DNA from: a virus
Direction: 5' to 3' (one strand)
Virus record (IMG/VR): IMGVR_UViG_2597490295_000013
Span: 21,285-85,284 of that record
Length of the DNA stretch: 64,000 nt
The first letter of the stretch is position 1. The number at the start of each line of letters is the position of its first letter. The position numbers and the translations under genes are program-made. Below, piece by piece: positions 279-44,369 of the stretch. Below the pieces are notes generated by a model. The model was not told where the DNA came from and searched no databases. It saw only the letters and a program-made list of their open reading frames with translations.

Positions 279-704
279 TTAAAATTCTTCTGGTAAATTT
301 CTCCATGCTTTACTTGCTTTTCTAGCAATTATTTTTTTTTCTATTGCTGACATTACTAATTCAGTATTTTTTCTTAAAGATTTTTCAATTTTTTCAAATC
401 TTTCTTTCTCTGATAATTCCATAAAATTAATAAAAGATTGTTTATTATATTGTATAAAATCTTTTTCACCTGTCATAATTGTATTGAGATTAGATGTATA
501 TGTGCCTTCCATTAATTGGTTATTATACAAAAATTTTATTTTTACTATAATAAAAAATCTGTTATTACTTCTTTTGTAACTAATTAATCGGATATTTACT
601 CTTTCAATTTCTTTCTTGTCTAGTATAATATAGGTGACATATAAAATTCCTATTATCCCAAATACTAACATAAACATAAATATTGCTTGTATAATTTCAT
701 TCAT
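279..704 (-). CDS. Hypothetical protein with an N-terminal transmembrane helix
   Basis: 141 aa; RBS AGAAAGGGAG; hydrophobic residues 5-27; own promoter (731-771) and terminator. Confidence 0.8.
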   Translation of the reverse strand: MNEIIQAIFMFMLVFGIIGILYVTYIILDKKEIERVNIRLISYKRSNNRFFIIVKIKFLYNNQLMEGTYTSNLNTIMTGEKDFIQYNKQSFINFMELSEKERFEKIEKSLRKNTELVMSAIEKKIIARKASKAWRNLPEEF

Positions 705-853
705 TTAATACACTCCCTTTCTGTAACTCTATTATCTCATATATGCTAAGAAAAAGATACTGTCCGGTGTATTAAAAAATTATACATTTTATTATCCAGT
801 GTATTAAAATTAGGCATACACCGCTTTATCCGGTGTATAAAAAGATGGAATCC

Positions 854-1027
854 TTAAATAACAGGAAACCATACCTTTTCAAGATGCAGATATTCATAAT
901 AAATATGGTAATCTCTACCAAATATAATTTTAGTGAATCTCTTATGACCACCATATTCACAAGGATTGTAAATATATCCTTGTTTTTCTAATCTTCTTAC
1001 TAATTTGTTAAATTCTGTATTTTTCAT
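854..1027 (-). CDS. Small hypothetical protein (57 aa), missing from the ORF track
   Basis: AGGAG RBS then ATG at 1027: MKNTEFNKLVRRLEKQGYIYNPC...KVWFPVI, TAA at 854-856. Confidence 0.7.
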   Translation of the reverse strand: MKNTEFNKLVRRLEKQGYIYNPCEYGGHKRFTKIIFGRDYHIYYEYLHLEKVWFPVI

Positions 1028-1029
1028 AC

Positions 1030-1377
1030 TCAACTCCTATCTATCAAAACAACTTGCAAACTATCTCTAAATGCTATCTCATAAGTATTTTCTTTAACTG
1101 CTAAAATTTTTGTTATAAAATTAGTTACTAAAATATTTTTAAATTCTTCAACATATTTTCCAAATTCTTCCATTCCTTTTTCTGTAAAATAACAATGACC
1201 AATTTTTTCATTTAAGCTATAATCTTGTGGATTAATGATTGGTAAATTTCTTTTAAATTGGTATGATGCTGTAGTATTATATAAATTTCTGTGCATTTCA
1301 TCGGGAATATTCATATCCCTAAACATTCCTACCCATTCATTCACTATATCATCAAAAAATTCTAATCTATAAAACAT
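1030..1377 (-). CDS. Hypothetical early protein ending at TGA (stop, or a 10-codon extension to TAG 1000-1002 under code 4)
   Basis: 115 aa; GAGGTG RBS; promoter TTGTGC-17-TATAAT with the motif upstream; TGA overlaps the RBS region of the next gene. Confidence 0.75.
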   Translation of the reverse strand: MFYRLEFFDDIVNEWVGMFRDMNIPDEMHRNLYNTTASYQFKRNLPIINPQDYSLNEKIGHCYFTEKGMEEFGKYVEEFKNILVTNFITKILAVKENTYEIAFRDSLQVVLIDRS

Positions 1378-1535
1378 AATTCCACCTCATTTCTATATAA
1401 TAATTATATCATATTTTACTAGAAAGCACAACTATGCGGTGTATAGGAATTCTTTTCCGGTGTATTCAGCAAGGGTAATTACATTTACACCGTGTCTTCC
1501 GGTGTATTGACAGTAAAAAAAGAGAAATTAATCTC

Positions 1536-2168
1536 TTAATATAATTCTCTATCATAAAATTGACAAGTGCCAGTGTCACATATTAAATAGGTATTTCTGT
1601 TTGAAGTGCTACATAATATATTATTATAATGGATATCACTTATTTGATATCCTTTTTTTCTAAATATATTATCAACAAATTCTTTAAATTTTACCATTCC
1701 TTTACAATGAATATTTTTAGGTTTTACACCTTTCTCTTGGATTAAAATAGTAAAATTTTTATAAACAAATATATCTACAACTTTTAACAAATGTTTTTGT
1801 AATGGCGAAAATTTCAAAGCTCTATAATTTAATGCTTCAATAATATTTTGATTATGATACATGAATCTGTCCTCAATTCCTAACCATATTTTAACAGATT
1901 CTTTATTAACTCCTAAATTTAAAATAGAAATAGTATTAAGATAATTTCTGTTAGTAATATGATTATTTTCAATTTCTTTCATTATACGTTTATATCCTAA
2001 TTTGGGTAATAATTCATAATCAGACATTTCAGTGTATCTTTCAATTTTTATTACTAAATTATCATTCAATGTATATACATCCCTAGAAATTCCACAGCCT
2101 AACATTTGTATATCGTTTTTATTGTCAAATATTTCCATTGCTTGTTTTCTTAATTCCTCTCTATCCAT
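1536..2168 (-). CDS. Protein kinase-like (atypical kinase fold) early protein
   Basis: Gly-rich loop LGCGISRDVY, VIKIE lysine strand, catalytic-loop-like SDIHYNNI and DFG-like ICDTG in kinase order. Confidence 0.55.
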   Translation of the reverse strand: MDREELRKQAMEIFDNKNDIQMLGCGISRDVYTLNDNLVIKIERYTEMSDYELLPKLGYKRIMKEIENNHITNRNYLNTISILNLGVNKESVKIWLGIEDRFMYHNQNIIEALNYRALKFSPLQKHLLKVVDIFVYKNFTILIQEKGVKPKNIHCKGMVKFKEFVDNIFRKKGYQISDIHYNNILCSTSNRNTYLICDTGTCQFYDRELY

Positions 2169-2390
2169 TTTATTCTTCCTTCCATTTTATGATAGTTAGG
2201 AATAGGTTAGACCAGAGTCTAGTCAGTAGTCTAACTCATTTGTAACTATACTTAATTATATCATAGGTTTTAAGAAAATACTATTATGCGGCGTATTTCT
2301 CTTCCGGTGTATCAGCGGTGTATTTTGAGTGGAGTAATCACGTTTACACCGCACTTTCCGGTGTATTCATGTCCTAAAAAAAATGAAAGA

Positions 2391-2936
2391 TTACTCTTCC
2401 ATTTTAGCAAGTGCTTTTGCCATTGCATAGGCATTTTTATTCGCTCTGTATTCTGTTCTACACCATCTCATATAAAATTTTTGTTGATTATCTCTATCTT
2501 TTTCTATCCTTACATATTTTCTATTTATTTTTTTATCAATTTCTAAATCTTCCCAGAATCTAGCAGGATTATCAAGATAATCTAACCAGTGTCCCAATTC
2601 ATGTAATATCGCATATTCTTCAAGCCCAAAATTAGGATTAATTTTTTTCATTTTTCTTTCAATTTGTTTTATTGCTTTTGGAAAATCTTTCTTAAATAAT
2701 TGAAGGTCTGAATCTGAAAAACGCAATATAGTATCATTCTCTTCAATTCTAGGTATAATATTATCTGTTCGAAACATTGAATAATCTAAATCATTCAATT
2801 TATTAATATCACCTTTAATAGCTAATGAAATAGGATATATTCTATTAATTTTTAAAGTAACACTATTAAAATAATGAGGATATAATTTTTTCATTTTTTC
2901 AAATATTTTTTTTGCTTTAATTTCTGATTCCATCAT
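2391..2936 (-). CDS. HExxH motif protein (ImmA/IrrE-like zinc metallopeptidase fold)
   Basis: ILHELGHWLD motif and a downstream EYRAN; start moved to ATG 2936 because the RBS AGAAAGGAAG and the promoter lie inside the longer predicted ORF. Confidence 0.5.
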   Translation of the reverse strand: MMESEIKAKKIFEKMKKLYPHYFNSVTLKINRIYPISLAIKGDINKLNDLDYSMFRTDNIIPRIEENDTILRFSDSDLQLFKKDFPKAIKQIERKMKKINPNFGLEEYAILHELGHWLDYLDNPARFWEDLEIDKKINRKYVRIEKDRDNQQKFYMRWCRTEYRANKNAYAMAKALAKMEE

Positions 2937-3023
2937 TTCTAACACTTCCTTTCTATAATCATTATAACATAAATACAAAGAGAATACTATTGTGCGGTGT
3001 ATAAAGATATTAAAAAAGGAAGA

Positions 3024-3302
3024 TTATTCCTTTTCTGAAACAATCTCAATAGTTTCGCCCAGAATTTTTTCTAATTCGGCAACTGTATATTTTTTTACCT
3101 TAATTGGTCTATTATCTTCAATAACACCATTTGAAGCTTCATAATAAATTTCATTATTATTTTTATTAAATTCTCTTTTAACCCAAAATCCATCAGAATT
3201 TTCATAATAAATTTTATTATTATTTTTATCAAATACAGAAAAAGAATCATCTTGGTATCTTATAATATATTCACCTTTTAACTCAACACCTTTTAATTTC
3301 AT
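3024..3302 (-). CDS. Phage hypothetical protein with a tandem (NNNxIYYExSxG) repeat
   Basis: 92 aa; two copies NNNKIYYENSDG / NNNEIYYEASNG; own promoter TAGTAT-17-TATACT. Confidence 0.75.
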   Translation of the reverse strand: MKLKGVELKGEYIIRYQDDSFSVFDKNNNKIYYENSDGFWVKREFNKNNNEIYYEASNGVIEDNRPIKVKKYTVAELEKILGETIEIVSEKE

Positions 3303-3601
3303 AGCTTCACTTCCTTTCTAATTATAGTATATCATAATATTACAGGTAATACTACTATACGGTGTATAATAAATTTTATCCGGTGTATTCCTGGTCATAA
3401 GCGGTGTACGGAAAGAAGCGGTGTATTAGCGGTGTAGGTCCTGGTCGTGAGTGCGGTGTATATTATACACCGGAAGTTCCGGTGTATTTATTTGCGGTGT
3501 ATTTACTTGACAGTTGCGGTGTAATACACCGACCCGTCGGTGTATTTCCTGGTCGTCCTTTGGGTACCAAATTATGGGAATAGAATTGCGGTGTATTGAG
3601 T

Positions 3602-3630
3602 ATAAAAAAAAATAGGGAATTAATCCCTAT
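3602..3630 (-). terminator. Intrinsic terminator, an exact 29-nt duplicate of 4382-4410
   Basis: Minus strand ATAGGGATTAATTCCCTATTTTTTTTT overlapping the radC stop codon. Confidence 0.8.
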
Positions 3631-4088
3631 TCTATTGTTCCATATTCTTTGAAACTGTAAAATTTATTTTCAGAACCTATAATAATATGGTCTAACACTT
3701 TTATTCCTAAAAGTTCCCCACAGTCACACAATTTTTCTGTTATTTTAAAATCTTCACCACTTGGTTCGGGATTCCCACTTGGATGGTTATGCATCAATAT
3801 AATACTTGAACAATTTTCAGCGATTGCATATTTAAATACGTCTCTAGGATGAACAATTGAACAATTTAAAGTACCGCTTGATATCTGTCCGATTCCAATA
3901 ATTTTATTCTTTGTATTTAATGCAATAACCCAAAATTTTTCTTGTGCTAATTCCCTTGCTTCTAATAAATCAGCGATTTCACTTATTTTAGTTGGTGAGT
4001 TAATTGTATATTCAATTAATGCATCATTTACTTCACACGCTTCGATTCTTTTTAGTCTCATTTCATATACAGATAATAATTTTTTCAT
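3627..4088 (-). CDS. radC: RadC-like JAB domain protein
   Basis: EKFWVIALNTKN, SGTLNCSIVHPRDVF, HNHPSG...SGED JAB metal motif, VLDHIIIG. Confidence 0.93.
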   Translation of the reverse strand: MKKLLSVYEMRLKRIEACEVNDALIEYTINSPTKISEIADLLEARELAQEKFWVIALNTKNKIIGIGQISSGTLNCSIVHPRDVFKYAIAENCSSIILMHNHPSGNPEPSGEDFKITEKLCDCGELLGIKVLDHIIIGSENKFYSFKEYGTIE

Positions 4089-4381
4089 AATATCCTCCTT
4101 TATTAATTGTTTATCGGTTATACCTTATTATAGCATTAATAAAGAATTTATTCAACTATGCGGTGTATTAAAATTTTATTGCGGTGTATTTCCGGTGTAT
4201 TTTCCAGGTTGCGGTCGGCGTACGGACTAGGGACTGGAAATTTCCGGTGTATAAATAATGCGGTGTATTTTCCTGGTCGTCTTTGGCTCACGGACTTTAG
4301 AGGATAGATTTGCGGTGTATTTTTCCTGGTCGCGGTCGGTGTACGGATTATTGGGCAGAGATTTGCGGTGTATAAATAAGC

Positions 4382-4410
4382 ATAAAAAAAAATAGGGAAT
4401 TAATCCCTAT
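4382..4410 (-). terminator. Intrinsic terminator identical to 3602-3630
   Basis: Same 29-nt sequence, overlapping the stop of 4400-4690. Confidence 0.8.
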
Positions 4411-4690
4411 CTTCTAAATATTCTACGTATTTATCAATATATGAGAATATTCTAAGTATTCCCAAACTTGCTGGAATATACCTCCATTGGATCTTTTTGT
4501 CATTAATTCCAATCCCTGGAAGTACTTCCGCTACCTTACAATAAATTACTGTTGTCTTTTTTAATACTAATTTAGATAATTCTGTCAAAACTGAAATGGA
4601 ATCTTTTCCCTGGGAAATCGTTCCATCTTCCCTGGTTTCTATATCTATTAATTTGGATAATTCTGGAATTTCGAATCTATATGTTAACAT
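4400..4690 (-). CDS. Hypothetical early protein
   Basis: Start moved to ATG 4690 behind the shared RBS AAAGGGGTAAAAA; TAA stop inside the terminator. Confidence 0.7.
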   Translation of the reverse strand: MLTYRFEIPELSKLIDIETREDGTISQGKDSISVLTELSKLVLKKTTVIYCKVAEVLPGIGINDKKIQWRYIPASLGILRIFSYIDKYVEYLEDRD

Positions 4691-4743
4691 TTTTTTTACC
4701 CCTTTCATAGTGTATAAATAGGGGAAAAATTTCCCCTATTTTA

Positions 4744-5085
4744 TCAATTCAATTGTTGTTGTTGCTTAACCCATTCATCTATCCATTCTTTTTCAATTAT
4801 TCTAATTTCTTCTAATGCGGTATCATCTAAAAAATCGATTAAAATATTCGATAAATCAACAACGGTAACAGTATAATCACGTTTTATAAAAAATTTTGTC
4901 TTTGATTCTTTAGTGCCATGGTGTGCTATTTCGCATATAACATTTTCTTGATTCCTATATTCTTCAAATAATATCAATAGCATTCTTCTAGCTTTTATCA
5001 TATCAAGCTTATAATGATTTACATGTATAGTAGCTTCATCAACAACACCTGATTCTTTATTAATAATTCTATAAGTTGTAAACAT
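4744..5085 (-). CDS. Hypothetical early protein ending TGA-TAA
   Basis: Start ATG 5085 behind AAAGGGGTAAAAA; tandem TGA then TAA (4741-4746). Confidence 0.7.
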   Translation of the reverse strand: MFTTYRIINKESGVVDEATIHVNHYKLDMIKARRMLLILFEEYRNQENVICEIAHHGTKESKTKFFIKRDYTVTVVDLSNILIDFLDDTALEEIRIIEKEWIDEWVKQQQQLN

Positions 5086-5132
5086 AATTTTTACCCCTTT
5101 CATAGTTTTAATTTATAAGGACTTTTTAGTCC

Positions 5133-5249
5133 CTATTCTTTTAAATATTCTTTAAATTCATTTTTCATTAAATCATAATTTATAACTATTTGGTCTTCAT
5201 CATAATCGTAAATCATTGCTAGCCATTCTGAATAGGTTAATTTTTTCAT
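5133..5249 (-). CDS. Small acidic hypothetical protein (38 aa), missing from the ORF track
   Basis: AAAGGGGTAAAAA RBS then MKKLTYSEWLAMIYDYDEDQ...EYLKE, TAG. Confidence 0.6.
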   Translation of the reverse strand: MKKLTYSEWLAMIYDYDEDQIVINYDLMKNEFKEYLKE

Positions 5250-5314
5250 TTTTTACCCCTTTCAATTTTAATTTTCTAGGGTAGGAAAACCCCTACCCTA
5301 GCAATACTTTTTTT

Positions 5315-5527
5315 TTAAATATCTTCATTTTCTATCTGTATTTCATAAAGTTTTTCTGCAATTTCTCTTTTTCCTTTTTCGCCATCATACTCGATTCCTA
5401 AATGCGATTCAATAAAATCACATTCTTCTAAGATTTCAAGGATTCTAAAACTTTTAATAGAATTCTTACAAATTTTGTAAAATAATGCTTCTTCTGATTC
5501 TCTTAATCTCAAATCATTGTTTAACAT
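5315..5527 (-). CDS. Hypothetical early protein
   Basis: 70 aa; AGGAGG RBS; hairpins on both sides. Confidence 0.7.
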   Translation of the reverse strand: MLNNDLRLRESEEALFYKICKNSIKSFRILEILEECDFIESHLGIEYDGEKGKREIAEKLYEIQIENEDI

Positions 5528-5594
5528 GGTATTACCTCCTATTTTAGATTATAGAGGGTAGTCCTTTACTACCCTCTTTTTAAGTCCCTAGAAA

Positions 5595-6149
5595 TTATTT
5601 TAAGCTATTTAAATAATTTCTAGTAATAATTTTTCTTAAACGTAATTTGTTACCATCTTTCACAGTAGTGACGTGTAACATGAGTAGCTTTTTAAACTGT
5701 TTAGATGTTAATACTGATACTGATTTTTTGTTTATATCTGTGATAAAATTCTCGAGTGTTATCATAAAAACGTCACATTCTCTATAGTACTTCATGATTC
5801 TATTAACAAACCTCAAATAAGTCTCGTCTGTACCCTTCTTAAATTCTGTTATACTTGGTGAACTGTTTTGCCCTAAATACTTAAATTGTATTCTTTTACC
5901 TTGATAGATAAAATCAAAGTGGTCAATTTTATCAAAGACGGGGTTTTGTATCCCTAACTTATATTGAGTATATAAATCAGCGATTTTACCTCTATTCATT
6001 TGATAGTCAAAACCTTCATAATCTTCTTCACTAAAGTAACATTCAAGCTCTTTGATAGCTCTTATGTTATCCCTATTGAATAATTCACGCCATTCGTTTT
6101 TTTCTGTTCTTAATGTTTTAACTTTTGTTGTTACTTTTTTAGTAGTCAT
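5595..6149 (-). CDS. Hypothetical protein, possible PD-(D/E)XK nuclease-like fold; first gene of the leftward arm
   Basis: 184 aa; AAAGGAAGG RBS; D-x10-QxK pattern (HFDFIYQGKRIQFK) only loosely resembles a nuclease motif. Confidence 0.55.
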   Translation of the reverse strand: MTTKKVTTKVKTLRTEKNEWRELFNRDNIRAIKELECYFSEEDYEGFDYQMNRGKIADLYTQYKLGIQNPVFDKIDHFDFIYQGKRIQFKYLGQNSSPSITEFKKGTDETYLRFVNRIMKYYRECDVFMITLENFITDINKKSVSVLTSKQFKKLLMLHVTTVKDGNKLRLRKIITRNYLNSLK

Positions 6150-6403
6150 TATAATACCTTCCTTTCATTCATTGGTTATACTAACTTGATGCTAGTATAA
6201 CGCTATTACACTTATATGATACTTATTATCGGTTAGTACCAAACAAGTGTTCTATTATGTTTTCAATGTGCTTTTAGAAGTCGCGACACGTCCGCTTTAT
6301 AACTTCCTGTGGTACTTATTAAATTATGATACATTATATATATACCTTATAAAAATACCTCTAAACATTTATTTTAAAAATAATTCAAGTTTTTTACTGT
6401 ATT

Positions 6404-6422
6404 GTAATGAGAATCATTCTTA
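6404..6422. promoter_or_regulatory. Fur-box-like 7-1-7 inverted repeat
   Basis: TGAGAAT-C-ATTCTTA (6408-6422); the 19-mer matches GATAATGATAATCATTATC at 14 of 19 positions. Confidence 0.45.
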
Positions 6423-6725
6423 ATGGATATTTAAGTCTTAACCCAAAAGTCATGTATACCCTATATCAGCATTTTAAAGTGCCTAGAATCAATTTTAATA
6501 TCATTCTAGTATTATAATATTATACCATGTTAAAACCGTTTAAATCTAAAATAAAGCATTATAGAATATATAAAAATATTTTAAAATATCTATATAATCA
6601 CTATTTTATTTTATGCAATAAAAATATATTAGTAAAAATAATCATGCTACTTTTATTGCATAACTAAAAAAAATTTATGCTACTTTTGTTGCACTGGTCA
6701 TGCAAGTTTTATGCAACTTAGTTTT

Positions 6726-6916
6726 GACTGTTATATCCTTAACACATTCAATTATCTAATTGTGTCAAACAATAAGAATATTAAGTGTGATATAATTAAC
6801 GATGCAGTTATCTAATTGTGTGAAACAATAAAACAATTGACTGTTATATTGTTAACACATTCATTTGCATGTTATTTCCTTAACACATTCAATTATCTAA
6901 TTGTTTGACACAATAA
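6726..6916. repeat. Cluster of imperfect direct repeats in the divergent non-coding region (iteron- or terminus-like)
   Basis: CCTTAACACATTCAATTATCTAATTGT twice (near 6737 and 6878); TTATCTAATTGT three times; GACTGTTATAT twice. Confidence 0.6.
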
Positions 6917-7714
6917 CACAATCGGGGTTATATATTATTTTCTTGCAATTGTGTGTATTTTCTTGATTGTTTGAATTGTTTGAATAATTTGAATTGTTTA
7001 GACAATACAAACAATGACGTTTATTTCCAGGACTTCCAAGAGTTACCAGTCCTGGGGTATTTTACCAGGACTGGAAGAGGGGGGTAGTTTTGGGAATATC
7101 TTCCATGGAAAATACTGGAAAGTGCGGGTGTAGTTCCTCTACCTACATTGACATTCTAAAACACGTAGTATACAAGTTCCTCTACCTACGTTGACCTTTT
7201 TTAATCCTTAGTGTACAAACCCTAACATATTTTCCAGGACATACGTACTTTCCCTCTGTTTTATAAGTATCTAATTTCTTTTAAACCGCGTCTAAAGTAT
7301 TAAAAGAAACTATATTATACCAAAAGCTAGTTTTCGAGAAAGAAGAAACATTATATATTATATATAAATCTATTTGAACCGCGTCTAAAATATTAATATA
7401 TAATATCCCTATCCTTTGTCTCTTTCTCTTGGGGCAAGCCGTTAGGCTTGCTATAGGAGATATAGGTATAGGAAAACTAGGAAAACTAGATAACAATTTA
7501 TAGAGAGTACCTTACCTCATACTTCGTTCTTTTCGCTTTCCGGAAAAAAATGGTATAATAAAGATAGAGAGAAAACGAGTAATAAACAAATAAATAATAT
7601 AGAAGATTTAAAAGAATTTATATTAAATTATAAATATACTGAAATTATAATCAAATGAGCGCACTCTGTGCTTTTTTAGATATAGGTGCGGTTTTAACTG
7701 AATTGGAGGTAATT

Positions 7715-7936
7715 ATGGCGTTGACAGTAGTAGAGAATGGTCAAGAAGTTATCTTAAAAGAGATAGATTGAGGAATAAAGTTAAAAAGAAAATTAGAAAG
7801 CATGGGATTAACACCTGGTGTTAAAATAACTATGATTCAAAGCTCGTCATTTGGACCTTGTATTGTTGAGGTAAGAGGAACAAGACTTGCGCTTGGAACT
7901 GAAATTATAGCTAAAATATTTGTGCGGTTTAAATAA
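7715..7936 (+). CDS. feoA: FeoA ferrous iron transport protein A (one TGA=Trp); absent from the ORF track
   Basis: GGAGG RBS; MALTVVENGQEVILKEID(W)GIKLKRKLESMGLTPGVKITMIQSSSFGPCIVEVRGTRLALG: typical FeoA L-x-x-M-G-L-x-P-G and VRG-x-R-LALG motifs. Confidence 0.85.
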
Positions 7937-8057
7937 ATTTAACGCAATAGATGAGGACTTTACGTTCTTCGTTTATTGTGTTTTTTACATAAATATGTTA
8001 TAATAAAAGTAGGAATAATAATTTGAACACTTTTGTCCAAATACTATAAATATAAGA

Positions 8058-9140
8058 ATGGTGGTGAAAATAATCAAACTTAAACTAGATACAACTATAA
8101 AAACCCAAGAGGAACGAATGGAATATATTAAAAAAATAATAGATTCCCCGGAATTTAGACCTAATTCATGGGTTTTGGAACTATTGACTAACTATGTTCT
8201 ATTTTTGAAGCCAAGAAAAGACCATTCAATTATAAGTGATAATAGACGTAAAACAATAAGGAAAAGAGAAACTTCAACAGAAGGACTTAAAGAAAAATTT
8301 GAAACTGGAGAAGATGCGATTTACAATTTAATTAGAAATGATAAGAATATGATATTATCTCCGAAAGTAACTATAACTCCACGAGATATTGCGGAACATA
8401 TTGAATTGAAACAATTAGTAGATACCATAAAAGAATGAGATGCGGAAATGAAGAGAAAAAATCTAACAGGGAAGAACCTGTATAGAGCAAAGAAAGCATT
8501 AATAGAGATGCGTCAGATGCAATACATAATTAAGGAAGAACTGAATAAACCATCAAGAATGAGAAATTTTAGAAAGACAACTTTAGAAATGCAGTTTAGT
8601 ATTGACACATGGTATATAAAAGAAGATGGAGACGTAAAATTAGTTAGTGAAGATACTATAGATTTTAAAGAGGGGAAGCACATAGAGATGTTGCTTTATT
8701 ATTACCCGAAGCTTATAGATTCTGCTTGAGATTTTAACAAAAGTGAAATGAAACATATATTATGGGATTTGGAATTACTTATTAATGCGTCATTAAAAGA
8801 AAAACCAGCTTGAAAAGATATTATTATTTGGAAAATAGATAAAAGAACTAATAAAGATATTAGAGAAATGTTACGTGAAGACCATAATTTGATCTATTCA
8901 GAAGAATATATTTCTACTTTATATAGGAATAAAATTCCTGCATTTATTGCGGAATATTATAGAATATCAGTAGAAGATTGGTATCATCTTAATAAAGTGA
9001 AAGGCACTTATAAAAAATGTAATAGATGCGGCGAACAGAAATTAATGAATAATACAAATTTTTCATTAAACAAAGGTAGTAAAGATGGGTTCTATTCCAT
9101 TTGTAAATCTTGTCGAAAAAAGAAAAATAAAAAACAGTAA
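8058..9140 (+). CDS. Conserved phage protein with a C-terminal CxxC-x-CxxC zinc finger (360 aa, 3 TGA)
   Basis: Track fragments 8058, 8448 and 8868 are in one frame joined by TGAs; KCNRCGEQK...ICKSCRK; upstream promoter TTGTGT-17-TATAAT (7976-8004). Confidence 0.8.
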
Positions 9141-12195: not shown

Positions 12196-12987
12196 TAACA
12201 TGGGTAGCCCCTCTTGCTAGTAATAGTAAGATGAAAATTCTTTTAATTGCTGGAAAATCCTTATAGGACAATCAGCAGCCAAGATTTAATATGTGTATAA
12301 GAGAGGAGAAATTATGTTTAAAAATGTAATAGCTTGAAATGTAAAACCAAACTTATACAAAATAAATGAAAAAGGTGAAGTATTAAGCATTTATATGAAT
12401 AAAATTATGAAAACAAGACTAGATAAAGATGGATATCCATCATTATCTCTCAGGAATAATAAAGGTGGATATAGTACTTTTTATATTCATAGATTATTAT
12501 TATCTACTTTTAATCCAATAGAGAATTATAGAGATATGACAGTTAATCATAAAAATGGGATAAAAACTGATTTCAATTTAGAAAATTTAGAATGAATGAC
12601 TAATTTGGAAAATTTAGAGCATGCGAATAGAACTGGCTTGCATAATGTAGTTGGAGAAAATCATCCTCGAGCGAAATTAACTGAAAAAGATATTTTTAAA
12701 ATATTAGACTTATTAAAATCAGGAATGAGTGGAGTCAGTATATCAAAAATATATAATGTTAATGAAAGCTGTATCTCTAAAATAAAAAATGGGAATACTT
12801 GAAATCATATTACACATATTAAATAAGGTTCAACGACTATGGGAGTAGCGTCCCTTAGGTTATAAGTTAATGATAACCGAAACGGAGAATGCCCGAAAGG
12901 GTAAAGATATAGTCTAGTCTGCATGGTAACATGCAGCAGTTCATAAGAGAACGGGATAAAGTGTTGCGGCTTTATTCGAATATAACG
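12196..12987 (+). mobile_element. Group I intron (792 nt) interrupting terL
   Basis: P AATTGCTGGAAA (12245), Q AATCAGCAG (12270), R GTTCAACGACTA (12828), S AAGATATAGTC (12904); exon ends in U with P1 GGGU/GCCC; intron ends in G; splicing restores TTAG-Y-KGSFAYEKL in frame. Confidence 0.9.
12314..12826 (+). CDS. Intron-encoded HNH homing endonuclease (170 aa, 3 TGA)
   Basis: GAGGAG RBS; YIHRLL...TVNHKNGIKTDFNLENLE(W)MTNLENLEHA HNH core; C-terminal HTH-like segment; lies between Q and R. Confidence 0.88.
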
Positions 12988-42689: not shown

Positions 42690-44369
42690 ATGCCACAAAA
42701 TACACCTAATTATGGATTAAAAAAATATAGCACTATCATAGATGGTCCAGAAATATTTGATAATTATATAGATGATACATCAAATAATTTTGAAATTATA
42801 GATACTGAATTAAATAGAGTAGAAGTTCAATCTGATTTTTATAAAGCTGGTTGAGATGATAACCAAACTTATCCAATTTTAAGTTTTGATGATTTAACTA
42901 GGACTTTTACAGTAGAAGGGAATGGTGCAACTTATTGGATTAATAATGTTCATTATTCTTTAGATATAGATGCTTCTATTCAAATTCCGGCAATTGAAGG
43001 AGTTCATTTTATTTATTTTACTAGCAGTGGTATAGAAACTTCTACTACAGAATGACCTTTTAATAATGAAGTATGTCCTATATCTATTACTTATTGAGAT
43101 AATACTAATTTAAAAAAGATTGGGTTAGGATATGAATTTCATAAATGAAGAATGGATCCAAGTCTTCATCATTATTTACATGATACACGTGGAACAGTAT
43201 ATAGCGAAGGTCTTGGTGTTACTCAGGTATCATCAACTACAATAAGAGTTGGTACAGGAACTATATTTGATGAAGATATAGAATTAAGAATAGGAGACAA
43301 TATAGGGAGTAGTCAAGTATTAAATCCATTGAGCAGTCCTATTGTTTATAGGATAGGAGAAGATGGAGATCTTAGATTAATTACAGCAAGTACTGACGTA
43401 TGTTATCTTAATCCAGGTCCAGAAATAAATACTTTTAATGGAAGTATTTGAGAAATGACATCTGTAAGTAATAATAAATATTTTTGTTATTGGTTACTTG
43501 CAACGAATGATTCAAATTTTCCAATAATTTTAGTACCAGGTCAAGTAGAAGGAGGAACATTAAAAGAAGCAGATGAATTGAACACTTTAGCAGGAATGCT
43601 TTTTGGAAATATTCATTTTGCAGAATTTGTTGTTTTATCAAGAGTTATGATGTTAGCAACTATAAGTTCTTATTCAATAGTACAAATAGATGATTATAGA
43701 ACTTCAAATGTTGCAAGTTCTTCTATCGTAAGCGAAAGTGCTCCTATTGTAATGGATGTTTTACCAGACATTACTACTAGAGATGCACTTGAGAATCCAT
43801 CTACGGGTAAACAAGTTCATATTATTGACGCAAGTGGAGATTCTAATGTCTACTCTAGCTGAGCACAGTATATTTACACAGGAGCGGTTTGAGTAAAAAC
43901 CAATGAAGATGATATTAATACTTCTTTTGGGACTTTTTATCAAAAAGAAACAGATCCATACAATATGGTTACAACTGGGACAAGTACTTTTACAGGAAAT
44001 AAAGTTGCATTAGTAATAACACAATCTGATATTCAAGGAGGAATAAGTCTTAATGGAGTAGATGGCAGACTTGAACATTCTGGAAGAGATACTAATTATC
44101 TCTTTAATGCTACTGCCACAGTTAGGGACCCTGATACTCCAAATATGAAAATTCATTTTATATTAGTTAAGAATGGAACAATATTTATAAATCCTTCAAT
44201 GAGCTATGGTAGATTAGAATCATTAGGAGCTGCTATGAGTTTAGATGCAGCATCTAATGTAAATATGTCAGATGGAGACTATATAGAAGTTTTTTGTAAA
44301 ACTGATAAATTAGATGGAGAATTTTGAGTTGATAGTATGCAATTACAATTAGTTCAAGTTCCACAATAA
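42690..44369 (+). CDS. Tail fibre / receptor-binding protein (559 aa, 8 TGA)
   Basis: MPQNTPNYGL start typical of fibres; three track fragments plus gaps join in one frame; C1q-like end (MSDGDYIEVFC). Confidence 0.7.

Follow-up and report, generated by a model that had tools for sequence, protein, structure and literature searches.

Recoded phages of standard-code hosts have been proposed to translate their early genes in the standard code, followed by the machinery that changes the code and then by the recoded genes (bioRxiv 10.1101/2021.08.26.457843), and dual-coded early blocks, with a code switch that comes after a strand switch and a suppressor tRNA placed 5' on the recoded strand, have also been reported (bioRxiv 10.1101/2022.06.29.495998). 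Here, we describe a phage from marine sediment metagenomes that fits this model and confirms it without changing it, the pattern being one already described for other recoded phages. The window analyzed is a stretch of 64,000 nucleotides (nt) of IMG/VR record IMGVR_UViG_2597490295_000013 (G000:C53:21285-85284) and belongs to C53, a phage contig of 127,832 bp and 28.5% G+C; coordinates are those of the window unless prefixed with C53. The genes at 279-6149 form the upstream 6 kb of a leftward arm that spans C53 from about 12.4 to 27.5 kb. We report that this arm holds no in-frame TGA, a codon that the phage appears to read as tryptophan (Trp) in its replication, structural and lysis genes, and that comparison with relatives gives good support to selection as the force that keeps it so.

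In its genome features, C53 resembles the Agate phages (Borges et al., 10.1101/2021.08.26.457843): a size of about 127 kb, low G+C, TGA read as Trp, a suppressor tRNA of its own and partial recoding, with homing endonucleases and a pre-lysis protein as the most TGA-rich genes. The likeness is judged by such features alone, and C53 comes from marine sediment, unlike the gut Agate phages; its best cultured portal matches are Enterococcus phages (33% identical). Published Agate maps show replication machinery in the standard code, whereas the replication block of C53 is recoded as heavily as its virion block, which places the code boundary earlier in the programme. With the dual-coded crAss-like and other multi-code phages (Mgcod; Pfennig, Lomsadze, Borodovsky), C53 shares a block that reads the same under both codes, a code switch that follows the strand switch and a suppressor tRNA at the 5' end of the recoded strand. 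The neutral block of those phages is enriched in early genes; they are mostly TAG-to-Gln phages of Bacteroidota, unlike C53, whose neutral part also differs in comprising two blocks, with one boundary on a single strand exactly at the tRNA. A third parallel is the code-change module of the Jade phages (suppressor tRNA, TrpRS and RF1; also from Borges et al.), in which, as in C53, the machinery is TGA-free and lies just upstream of the recoded genes. Unlike the Jade phages, C53 carries no phage release factor, and its tRNA(UCA) is the one code-change component identified, TrpRS not having been searched for.

The first-pass annotation of this DNA had found TGG for all 14 Trp codons of the 12 leftward genes in 279-6149 and TGA nowhere inside them, against a background in which about one third of Trp codons are TGA. 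Both figures stand: an exact recount gives the same 14 and 0, and the structural and replication genes (blocks IV and V) together use 81 TGA and 158 TGG (81/239 = 0.339). The binomial probability of finding 0 TGA among 14 codons, 0.0030, likewise equals the earlier figure. Because the region had been chosen post hoc, the whole contig was tested too. Counted after two start corrections and the removal of one open reading frame (ORF) that is a motif array, the 28 genes of the full arm use TGG 39 times and internal TGA not once (P about 1e-7); genes containing TGA number 45 of 81 in the core versus 0 of 28 in the arm. The longest run of Trp codons all written TGG on C53 is 40 codons (C53 14890-27594) and coincides with the arm, while 20,000 shuffles of the TGA/TGG labels gave a mean longest run of 15.7 and reached 40 or more at a frequency of 5e-5. 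An automatic gene set, built with a coding score blind to TGA and TGG and with no hand curation, still yields 38 TGG and 4 TGA for the whole arm (P=4e-4), and all four of these TGAs lie upstream of better starts.

Chance, given few Trp codons, or a gene-calling artefact that leaves TGA-containing genes hidden in the spacers would be compatible with the P=0.003 of the window alone, in a region picked after looking. Chance is contradicted by the run test, by the whole-arm probability and by the replication of the pattern in two relatives; as to an artefact, the spacers score as non-coding and are filled by motif arrays, and the ORF lists made for the arm stretch under code 11 and under code 4 (TGA read as sense) are identical save for the ends of 1030-1377 and 4744-5085. 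We consider the probability of either to be negligible. Nor does base composition account for the TGA-free arm: in the Lys, Glu, Gln, Leu (TTR) and Arg (AGR) codon pairs, all blocks favour the A-ending member to a similar degree (share 0.82-0.96), and the arm shows no depletion of out-of-frame TGA (42-43 per 1000 vs 32-36).

Reading TGA as sense raises the fraction of C53 covered by ORFs of at least 150 amino acids (aa) from 0.53 to 0.70, a gain of 0.17; among the other contigs of at least 10 kb in the bin that includes C53 (2.1 Mb, 78 contigs), the gain is at most about 0.06, with larger gains in a few contigs of 5-8 kb. The bin encodes both release factor 1 (PAT motif) and release factor 2 (SPF motif), terminates 11% of its long ORFs at TGA and has one tRNA-Trp(CCA), with a tRNA(UCA) nowhere except on C53. 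In the phage ribonucleotide reductase, TGA codons 139 and 181, both informative sites, align with Trp of the solved Lactobacillus enzyme (PDB 1L1L), and the replication, structural and lysis genes, which the first-pass annotation had singled out as needing a code switch, do carry TGA at conserved Trp sites. TGA at Trp sites, a Trp-like tRNA(UCA) and a standard-code bin together point to C53 as a TGA-to-Trp phage amid standard-code surroundings, and the TGA stops retained in the arm are likewise consistent with a standard-code host. No terminal repeat was found on C53. Six short contigs of the bin (C72, C78, C70, C1, C25 and C48) also show a clear code-4 gain in ORF cover, for instance from 0.60 to 0.73 in C72, and may be pieces of additional recoded phages.

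Two relatives bear on whether the arm reflects selection or history. One, L006 (IMGVR_UViG_3300033143_004212), is an 83-kb fragment with the same layout as C53 and a sigma-like protein 72.6% identical to that of C53 (tblastn); tRNA(UCA) was not seen in this fragment, which is 56% complete by estimate. Its leftward arm uses about 33 TGG and no credible TGA, and about 20% of the Trp codons in its core are TGA; the apparent TGAs of its arm trace to a gene with a frameshift, to a wrongly placed start and to a promoter region. L006 holds homologues of nine arm genes (29-78% identity), at least seven of them at 39-78%. All 15 Trp columns conserved between the two phages in the arm are TGG in both, and those of the core divide into 22 TGG/TGG, 8 TGA/TGA and 9 flips. 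The second relative is known from two 7-kb contigs, L007 and L008, which show the gene order 210 aa, 113 aa, 58 aa, 141 aa and 17 distinct called genes without in-frame TGA. At this distance, TGG and TGA interchange freely in the core and never in the arm, which argues for selection rather than ancestry; on this comparison, the proposal that selection keeps the arm free of in-frame TGA is well supported.

The first-pass annotation had recognized that its reading would fail if the arm were a recent acquisition from code-11 donors and not expressed early; recent acquisition is not borne out, as the arm is conserved and TGA-free in the relatives. More broadly, the arm could be a fast-turnover accessory island, recently drawn from standard-code donors, in which TGA has had too little time to appear. 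Such gene flux would agree with the mosaic make-up of the arm, where 1030-1377 and 4744-5085 have no counterpart in L006, with the lack of family matches for most arm proteins and with a codon usage marginally off that of the core. It does not agree with the presence of TGA in 17 of 39 conserved core Trp columns versus 0 of 15 in the arm, measured against the same relative, nor with a block-specific motif and promoter set that runs throughout the arm and recurs in the relatives, nor with arm codon usage that is no closer to the bin (distance 0.56) than to the phage core (0.44). Because the arm is conserved in relatives and its codon usage is not closer to the bin, recent import cannot, as far as these comparisons reach, explain the conserved arm genes, and we hold gene flux as the cause of the pattern to be highly improbable.

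The arm also appears to use TGA as a genuine stop, as had been proposed for two of its genes. The gene at 1030-1377 terminates at TGA 1030-1032, with GGAG at 1034-1037 and the next ATG at 1025-1027, so that the downstream gene starts 2 nt after the TGA and has its GGAG ribosome-binding site within the final codons of 1030-1377. Read in code 4, this gene would be 10 codons longer and run into the next gene; its homologue P0002 (64% identical) ends at a TAG two codons earlier, inside the conserved ribosome-binding site, and has no counterpart of the 10-residue extension. Relatives of 1030-1377 were absent from the IMG/VR scan and came from a large protein search; the same protein is also encoded on a 128,148-bp contig elsewhere. 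The gene at 4744-5085 terminates at TGA-TAA (TGA 4744-4746, TAA 4741-4743), directly followed on the minus strand by a terminator-like hairpin with a G+C stem and a T-run (4722-4736); its L007 homologue has the same last residues, then TAA-TAA where C53 has TGA-TAA, and the same hairpin. A third gene, outside the window (C53 14804-14947), ends at a TGA followed by three codons and a TAA. All four arm TGAs fall within the last 15 codons (P=0.003). Unlike the Mgcod phages, C53 thus keeps the reassigned codon as a real stop, in 3 of the 28 arm genes and with an in-frame TAA or TAG backup 1 to 10 codons on. As far as comparison can show, these TGAs occupy true stop positions, and read-through after the switch, adding 1, 10 or 3 residues, would probably be harmless. 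Candidate "fossil" TGA stops in recoded genes, suggested by an excess of TGA in the last 15 codons, were discarded: three cases lie in a spurious ORF in a repeat region, and TGG has the same end bias (Fisher P=0.26).

The other code boundary lies exactly at the suppressor tRNA. C53 has 24 tRNA genes on the minus strand (C53 102150-115175), the most upstream of which has the anticodon UCA (C53 115102-115175, minus strand; Rfam tRNA, 36.6 bits). This tRNA is of normal size and has an A1-U72 pair and G73 like the tRNA-Trp(CCA) of the bin; these are known bacterial Trp identity elements. The gene lies directly downstream of a gyrA-like gene, behind two near-consensus promoters (TTGAC(A/T), 17 nt, TGaTATAAT), and heads the 24-tRNA array, which is followed by the recoded replication genes (38 TGA and 68 TGG; 4 TGA each in the PolC-like polymerase and the ribonucleotide reductase). 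Along the direction of transcription, the genes before tRNA(UCA) are TGA-free and those after it recoded. Rfam reports an extra tRNA within the array (C53 107657-107727, L004 7657-7727, minus strand) that ARAGORN missed; its anticodon reads CCA by eye, with A1-U72 and G73, which suggests that the phage has a tRNA-Trp(CCA)-like gene as well, albeit one whose anticodon stem is weak.

Upstream of the suppressor tRNA, blocks VII (C53 115.2-127.8 kb) and I (C53 1-5.9 kb) lie on the minus strand, cover about 18 kb and are contiguous if the genome is circular. They use 28 TGG and 3 TGA, two of the latter in a GIY-YIG endonuclease and one at a doubtful start; together with the arm the count is 67 TGG and 3 TGA, two of the three inside this homing endonuclease. 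Their products are GyrA-like and GyrB-like proteins, an M16 peptidase, a lytic transglycosylase, a kinase-like protein, a phosphoesterase and RNA ligase 2. The gyrB-like gene (C53 118195-121132, L005 8195-11132, minus strand) is divided into a 451-aa N-terminal and a 161-aa C-terminal part with the GIY-YIG gene between them. Around the suppressor tRNA and the split gyrB, Rfam at gathering thresholds returned tRNAs only, with no ribozyme and no group I intron.

The arm coincides with an independent transcriptional marker, the motif TACACCG, of which 84 of the 88 contig copies lie in the arm (C53 12-28 kb), compared with 0.03 per kb in the rest of the bin, and which also marks the arm in both relatives. 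Arrays of it, mostly on the gene strand, fill the arm spacers (705-853, 1378-1535, 2169-2390, 3303-3626 and 4089-4399 in the window). Most arm units have one TACACCG at a fixed distance before a TGnTATAAT, which in turn lies about 25-35 nt before the ribosome-binding site; this extended -10 element is found on the minus strand at 1403-1411, upstream of 1030-1377 and 854-1027, and at 2255-2263, 2961-2969, 4127-4135 and 6519-6527, each preceded by TACACCG motifs. TACACCG is probably the binding site of a regulator of the arm genes. On the coding strand, TGnTATAAT exceeds expectation 5- to 7-fold in the TGA-free blocks (6, 7 and 8 found vs 0.9, 1.5 and 1.5 expected), 2.8-fold in the rightward block and 1.4-fold in the replication block, and terminator-like sites number 15 vs 2.5 expected (sixfold). 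These host-type promoters fit transcription by the host polymerase, and hence suggest early expression of the arm.

Taken together, we find it likely that the arm is a standard-code-compatible block, read by the host code before or independently of the build-up of tRNA(UCA). The arm would be transcribed by host RNA polymerase and translated by unmodified host ribosomes, with release factor 2 still terminating at arm TGAs, before or independent of that build-up; a change from TGG to TGA would then truncate the protein and be removed by selection. The same would hold for blocks VII and I, which together cover about 18 kb immediately upstream of tRNA(UCA). The replication genes downstream of the tRNA and the rightward block (sigma-like, virion and lysis genes) would tolerate TGA and so depend on tRNA(UCA). 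That TGA must stay out of any gene read before the suppressor is present, or without it, is well supported.

Several observations weigh against this reading. The codon usage of the arm is slightly farther from the core than that of random core subsets (0.44 vs a 95th percentile of 0.41). The bin is taken to be the host through binning alone: C53 and the bin share no sequence of at least 25 nt, spacer-like or other, and their shared 22-mers are four A+T-rich chance matches. Early expression by the host polymerase is proposed from promoter-like sequence and the block motif, and a general sigma-70 scan is barely above chance in this very A+T-rich DNA (75 sites vs 56 expected). With its consensus promoters, tRNA(UCA) may be made alongside the arm genes, which would narrow the window in which TGA acts as a stop. 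Finally, the small rightward genes at C53 5.9-12.3 kb have 4 TGA, two of them in an HNH endonuclease, and 13 TGG, so not every region of small genes is code-neutral.

Selection could also act on efficiency, without timing, if highly expressed arm genes avoided slow or leaky decoding of TGA in competition with release factor 2. TGA is indeed under-used everywhere relative to other A-ending codons, and the likely abundant virion proteins (portal and a 333-aa head-module protein) have 0 TGA; these two genes, however, hold 1 Trp codon each and are little informative. Selection of this kind would reduce TGA rather than abolish it across 39 codons and two or three genomes, and it leaves the use of TGA as an arm stop unexplained. 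We regard it as improbable.

Apart from its code, the arm consists of small genes, mostly orphans, strung together in short promoter-to-terminator units. Gene starts chosen by ribosome-binding site define 12 minus-strand genes within 279-6149, numbered here from the upstream end, and the arm proteins are orphans in PHROG and Pfam except for a RadC-like JAB protein. Gene 1 (5595-6149, 184 aa, 1 TGG, stop TAA) has no family match and an L006 homologue 52% identical to it. Gene 2 (5315-5527, 70 aa, stop TAA) has an AGGAGG ribosome-binding site, and gene 3 (5133-5249, 38 aa, stop TAG) shares its ribosome-binding-site context with gene 4 (4744-5085, 113 aa), one of the TGA-ending genes above, and with gene 5 (4400-4690, 96 aa, stop TAA), which has a terminator-like hairpin at 4387-4415. 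The RadC-like JAB domain is encoded by gene 6 (3627-4088, 153 aa, 1 TGG, stop TAG; PF04002 E=1.5e-43, phrog_10276). Gene 7 (3024-3302, 92 aa) and gene 8 (2391-2936, 181 aa, 3 TGG) both stop at TAA, as does gene 9 (1536-2168, 210 aa), which has weak kinase-like PHROG hits and homologues in L006 and L007. In L006, this kinase-like arm gene (L006 5500-6434) is frameshifted, two adjacent frames each matching half of the C53 protein, which could be an assembly error or a pseudogene. Gene 10 (1030-1377, 115 aa) is the other TGA-ending gene of the window; gene 11 (854-1027, 57 aa) has a 58-aa gene at the syntenic position in L007/L008, and gene 12 (279-704, 141 aa, stop TAA), with a terminator-like hairpin at 260-280, has an L006 homologue 39% identical to it. 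At the distal end of the arm, a first count had made block II (C53 5.9-13.9 kb) as recoded as the core (7 TGA, 14 TGG); the TGA-blind score showed several of its ORFs to be antisense or motif arrays, and the arm boundary was moved to about 12.4 kb. Large virulent Bacillota phages of the SPO1 type have early or host-takeover arms of small orphan genes served by strong promoters and terminators of host type; all of SPO1 is in the standard code, and its likeness to the C53 arm is architectural only.

Between the TGA-free arm and the recoded rightward block lies a divergent region of 1.9 kb (6150-8057), mostly non-coding. It carries rightward TGnTATAAT elements and four iterated copies of a 53-nt repeat (6723-6916), along with further direct and inverted repeats. 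Cumulative GC skew reaches its minimum here, and the region may act as an origin of replication, as a control region or as both. Small code-4 ORFs in it (for example 6816-7001, with 4 TGA) were rejected as repeat artefacts. The gene at 7655-7936, behind a TGgTATAAT, contains an in-frame TGA and specifies a FeoA-domain protein (Pfam E=1.3e-18), an unusual find in the control region of a phage. The first large rightward gene (8058-9140, plus strand, 360 aa) matches phrog_5767, "sigma factor" (E=4.5e-45), and has a TGnTATAAT upstream and in-frame TGA at codons 127, 224 and 252, all three conserved in L006. Searches with its protein against Pfam, NCBIfam and PDB sequences returned no match, and no ORF of the bin resembles it; the sigma assignment, which comes from the phrog_5767 label alone, is putative, and the gene could encode a translation-gated regulator.

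The first-pass annotation went on to propose that the code itself acts as a temporal regulator. Its premises hold, in that the arm appears to be TGA-free through selection and TGA to be a true stop there; the regulatory step is not supported as stated, the recoded genes having no 5' bias of TGA (Kolmogorov-Smirnov P=0.67) and a TGA share of 0.34, and the suppressor tRNA two consensus host-type promoters. The same evidence bears on the idea of an evolved timer, in which TGAs were placed in replication, regulatory, virion and lysis genes to delay their translation and the arm is the designed "before" state. TGA use is uneven among core genes (permutation P=0.011), as a timer would have it, and peaks in the gene for a 559-aa protein of no known family (42690-44369; 8 TGA, 2 TGG), the most TGA-rich large gene of the contig and the last one before the inverted Amidase_3 endolysin gene. 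Three homing endonucleases, HNH_3 (12293-12826), HNH (C53 11201-11644) and GIY-YIG (C53 118884-119732), have 7-8 TGA and 1 TGG, well above the average share of 0.34, and both TGA-rich patterns are also reported for Agate phages. The three conserved TGAs of the sigma-like gene, behind a host-type -10, point the same way, although the sigma label comes from one PHROG family only. Against a timer, besides the even spread of TGA along genes, core Trp codons switch freely between TGA and TGG from one relative to another, and the TGA share of 0.34, compared with an A-ending share of 0.83-0.94 at comparable codon pairs, makes TGA look mildly selected against and fits passive tolerance as well as a timer. 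With two consensus promoters, moreover, tRNA(UCA) could appear at once, so any delay would be short. An evolved timer is thus possible but doubtful.

A more specific proposal, which we offer as speculation and think rather unlikely, places the code switch upstream of the transcription switch in a three-step programme: the TACACCG regulon would be expressed under host polymerase and host code, tRNA(UCA) would then be made from its two promoters, and the sigma-like regulator would follow, its mRNA being present early but untranslatable until tRNA(UCA) is available. If this were true, recoding would license replication and late transcription, rather than a transcription cascade alone doing so, and would have an earlier and more central role than the lysis timing proposed so far.

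Our findings provide a clean, statistically strong case of a non-gut phage part of whose genome stays readable in the host code. They are sharper than the surveys in that the neutral block coincides with a motif and host-type promoters identified independently of it, that relatives indicate TGA to be a stop there, and that the boundary between the codes, ahead of the replication genes, coincides exactly with the suppressor tRNA. Were the host found, one could test directly on this architecture whether recoding sets the timing of gene expression or only records it.

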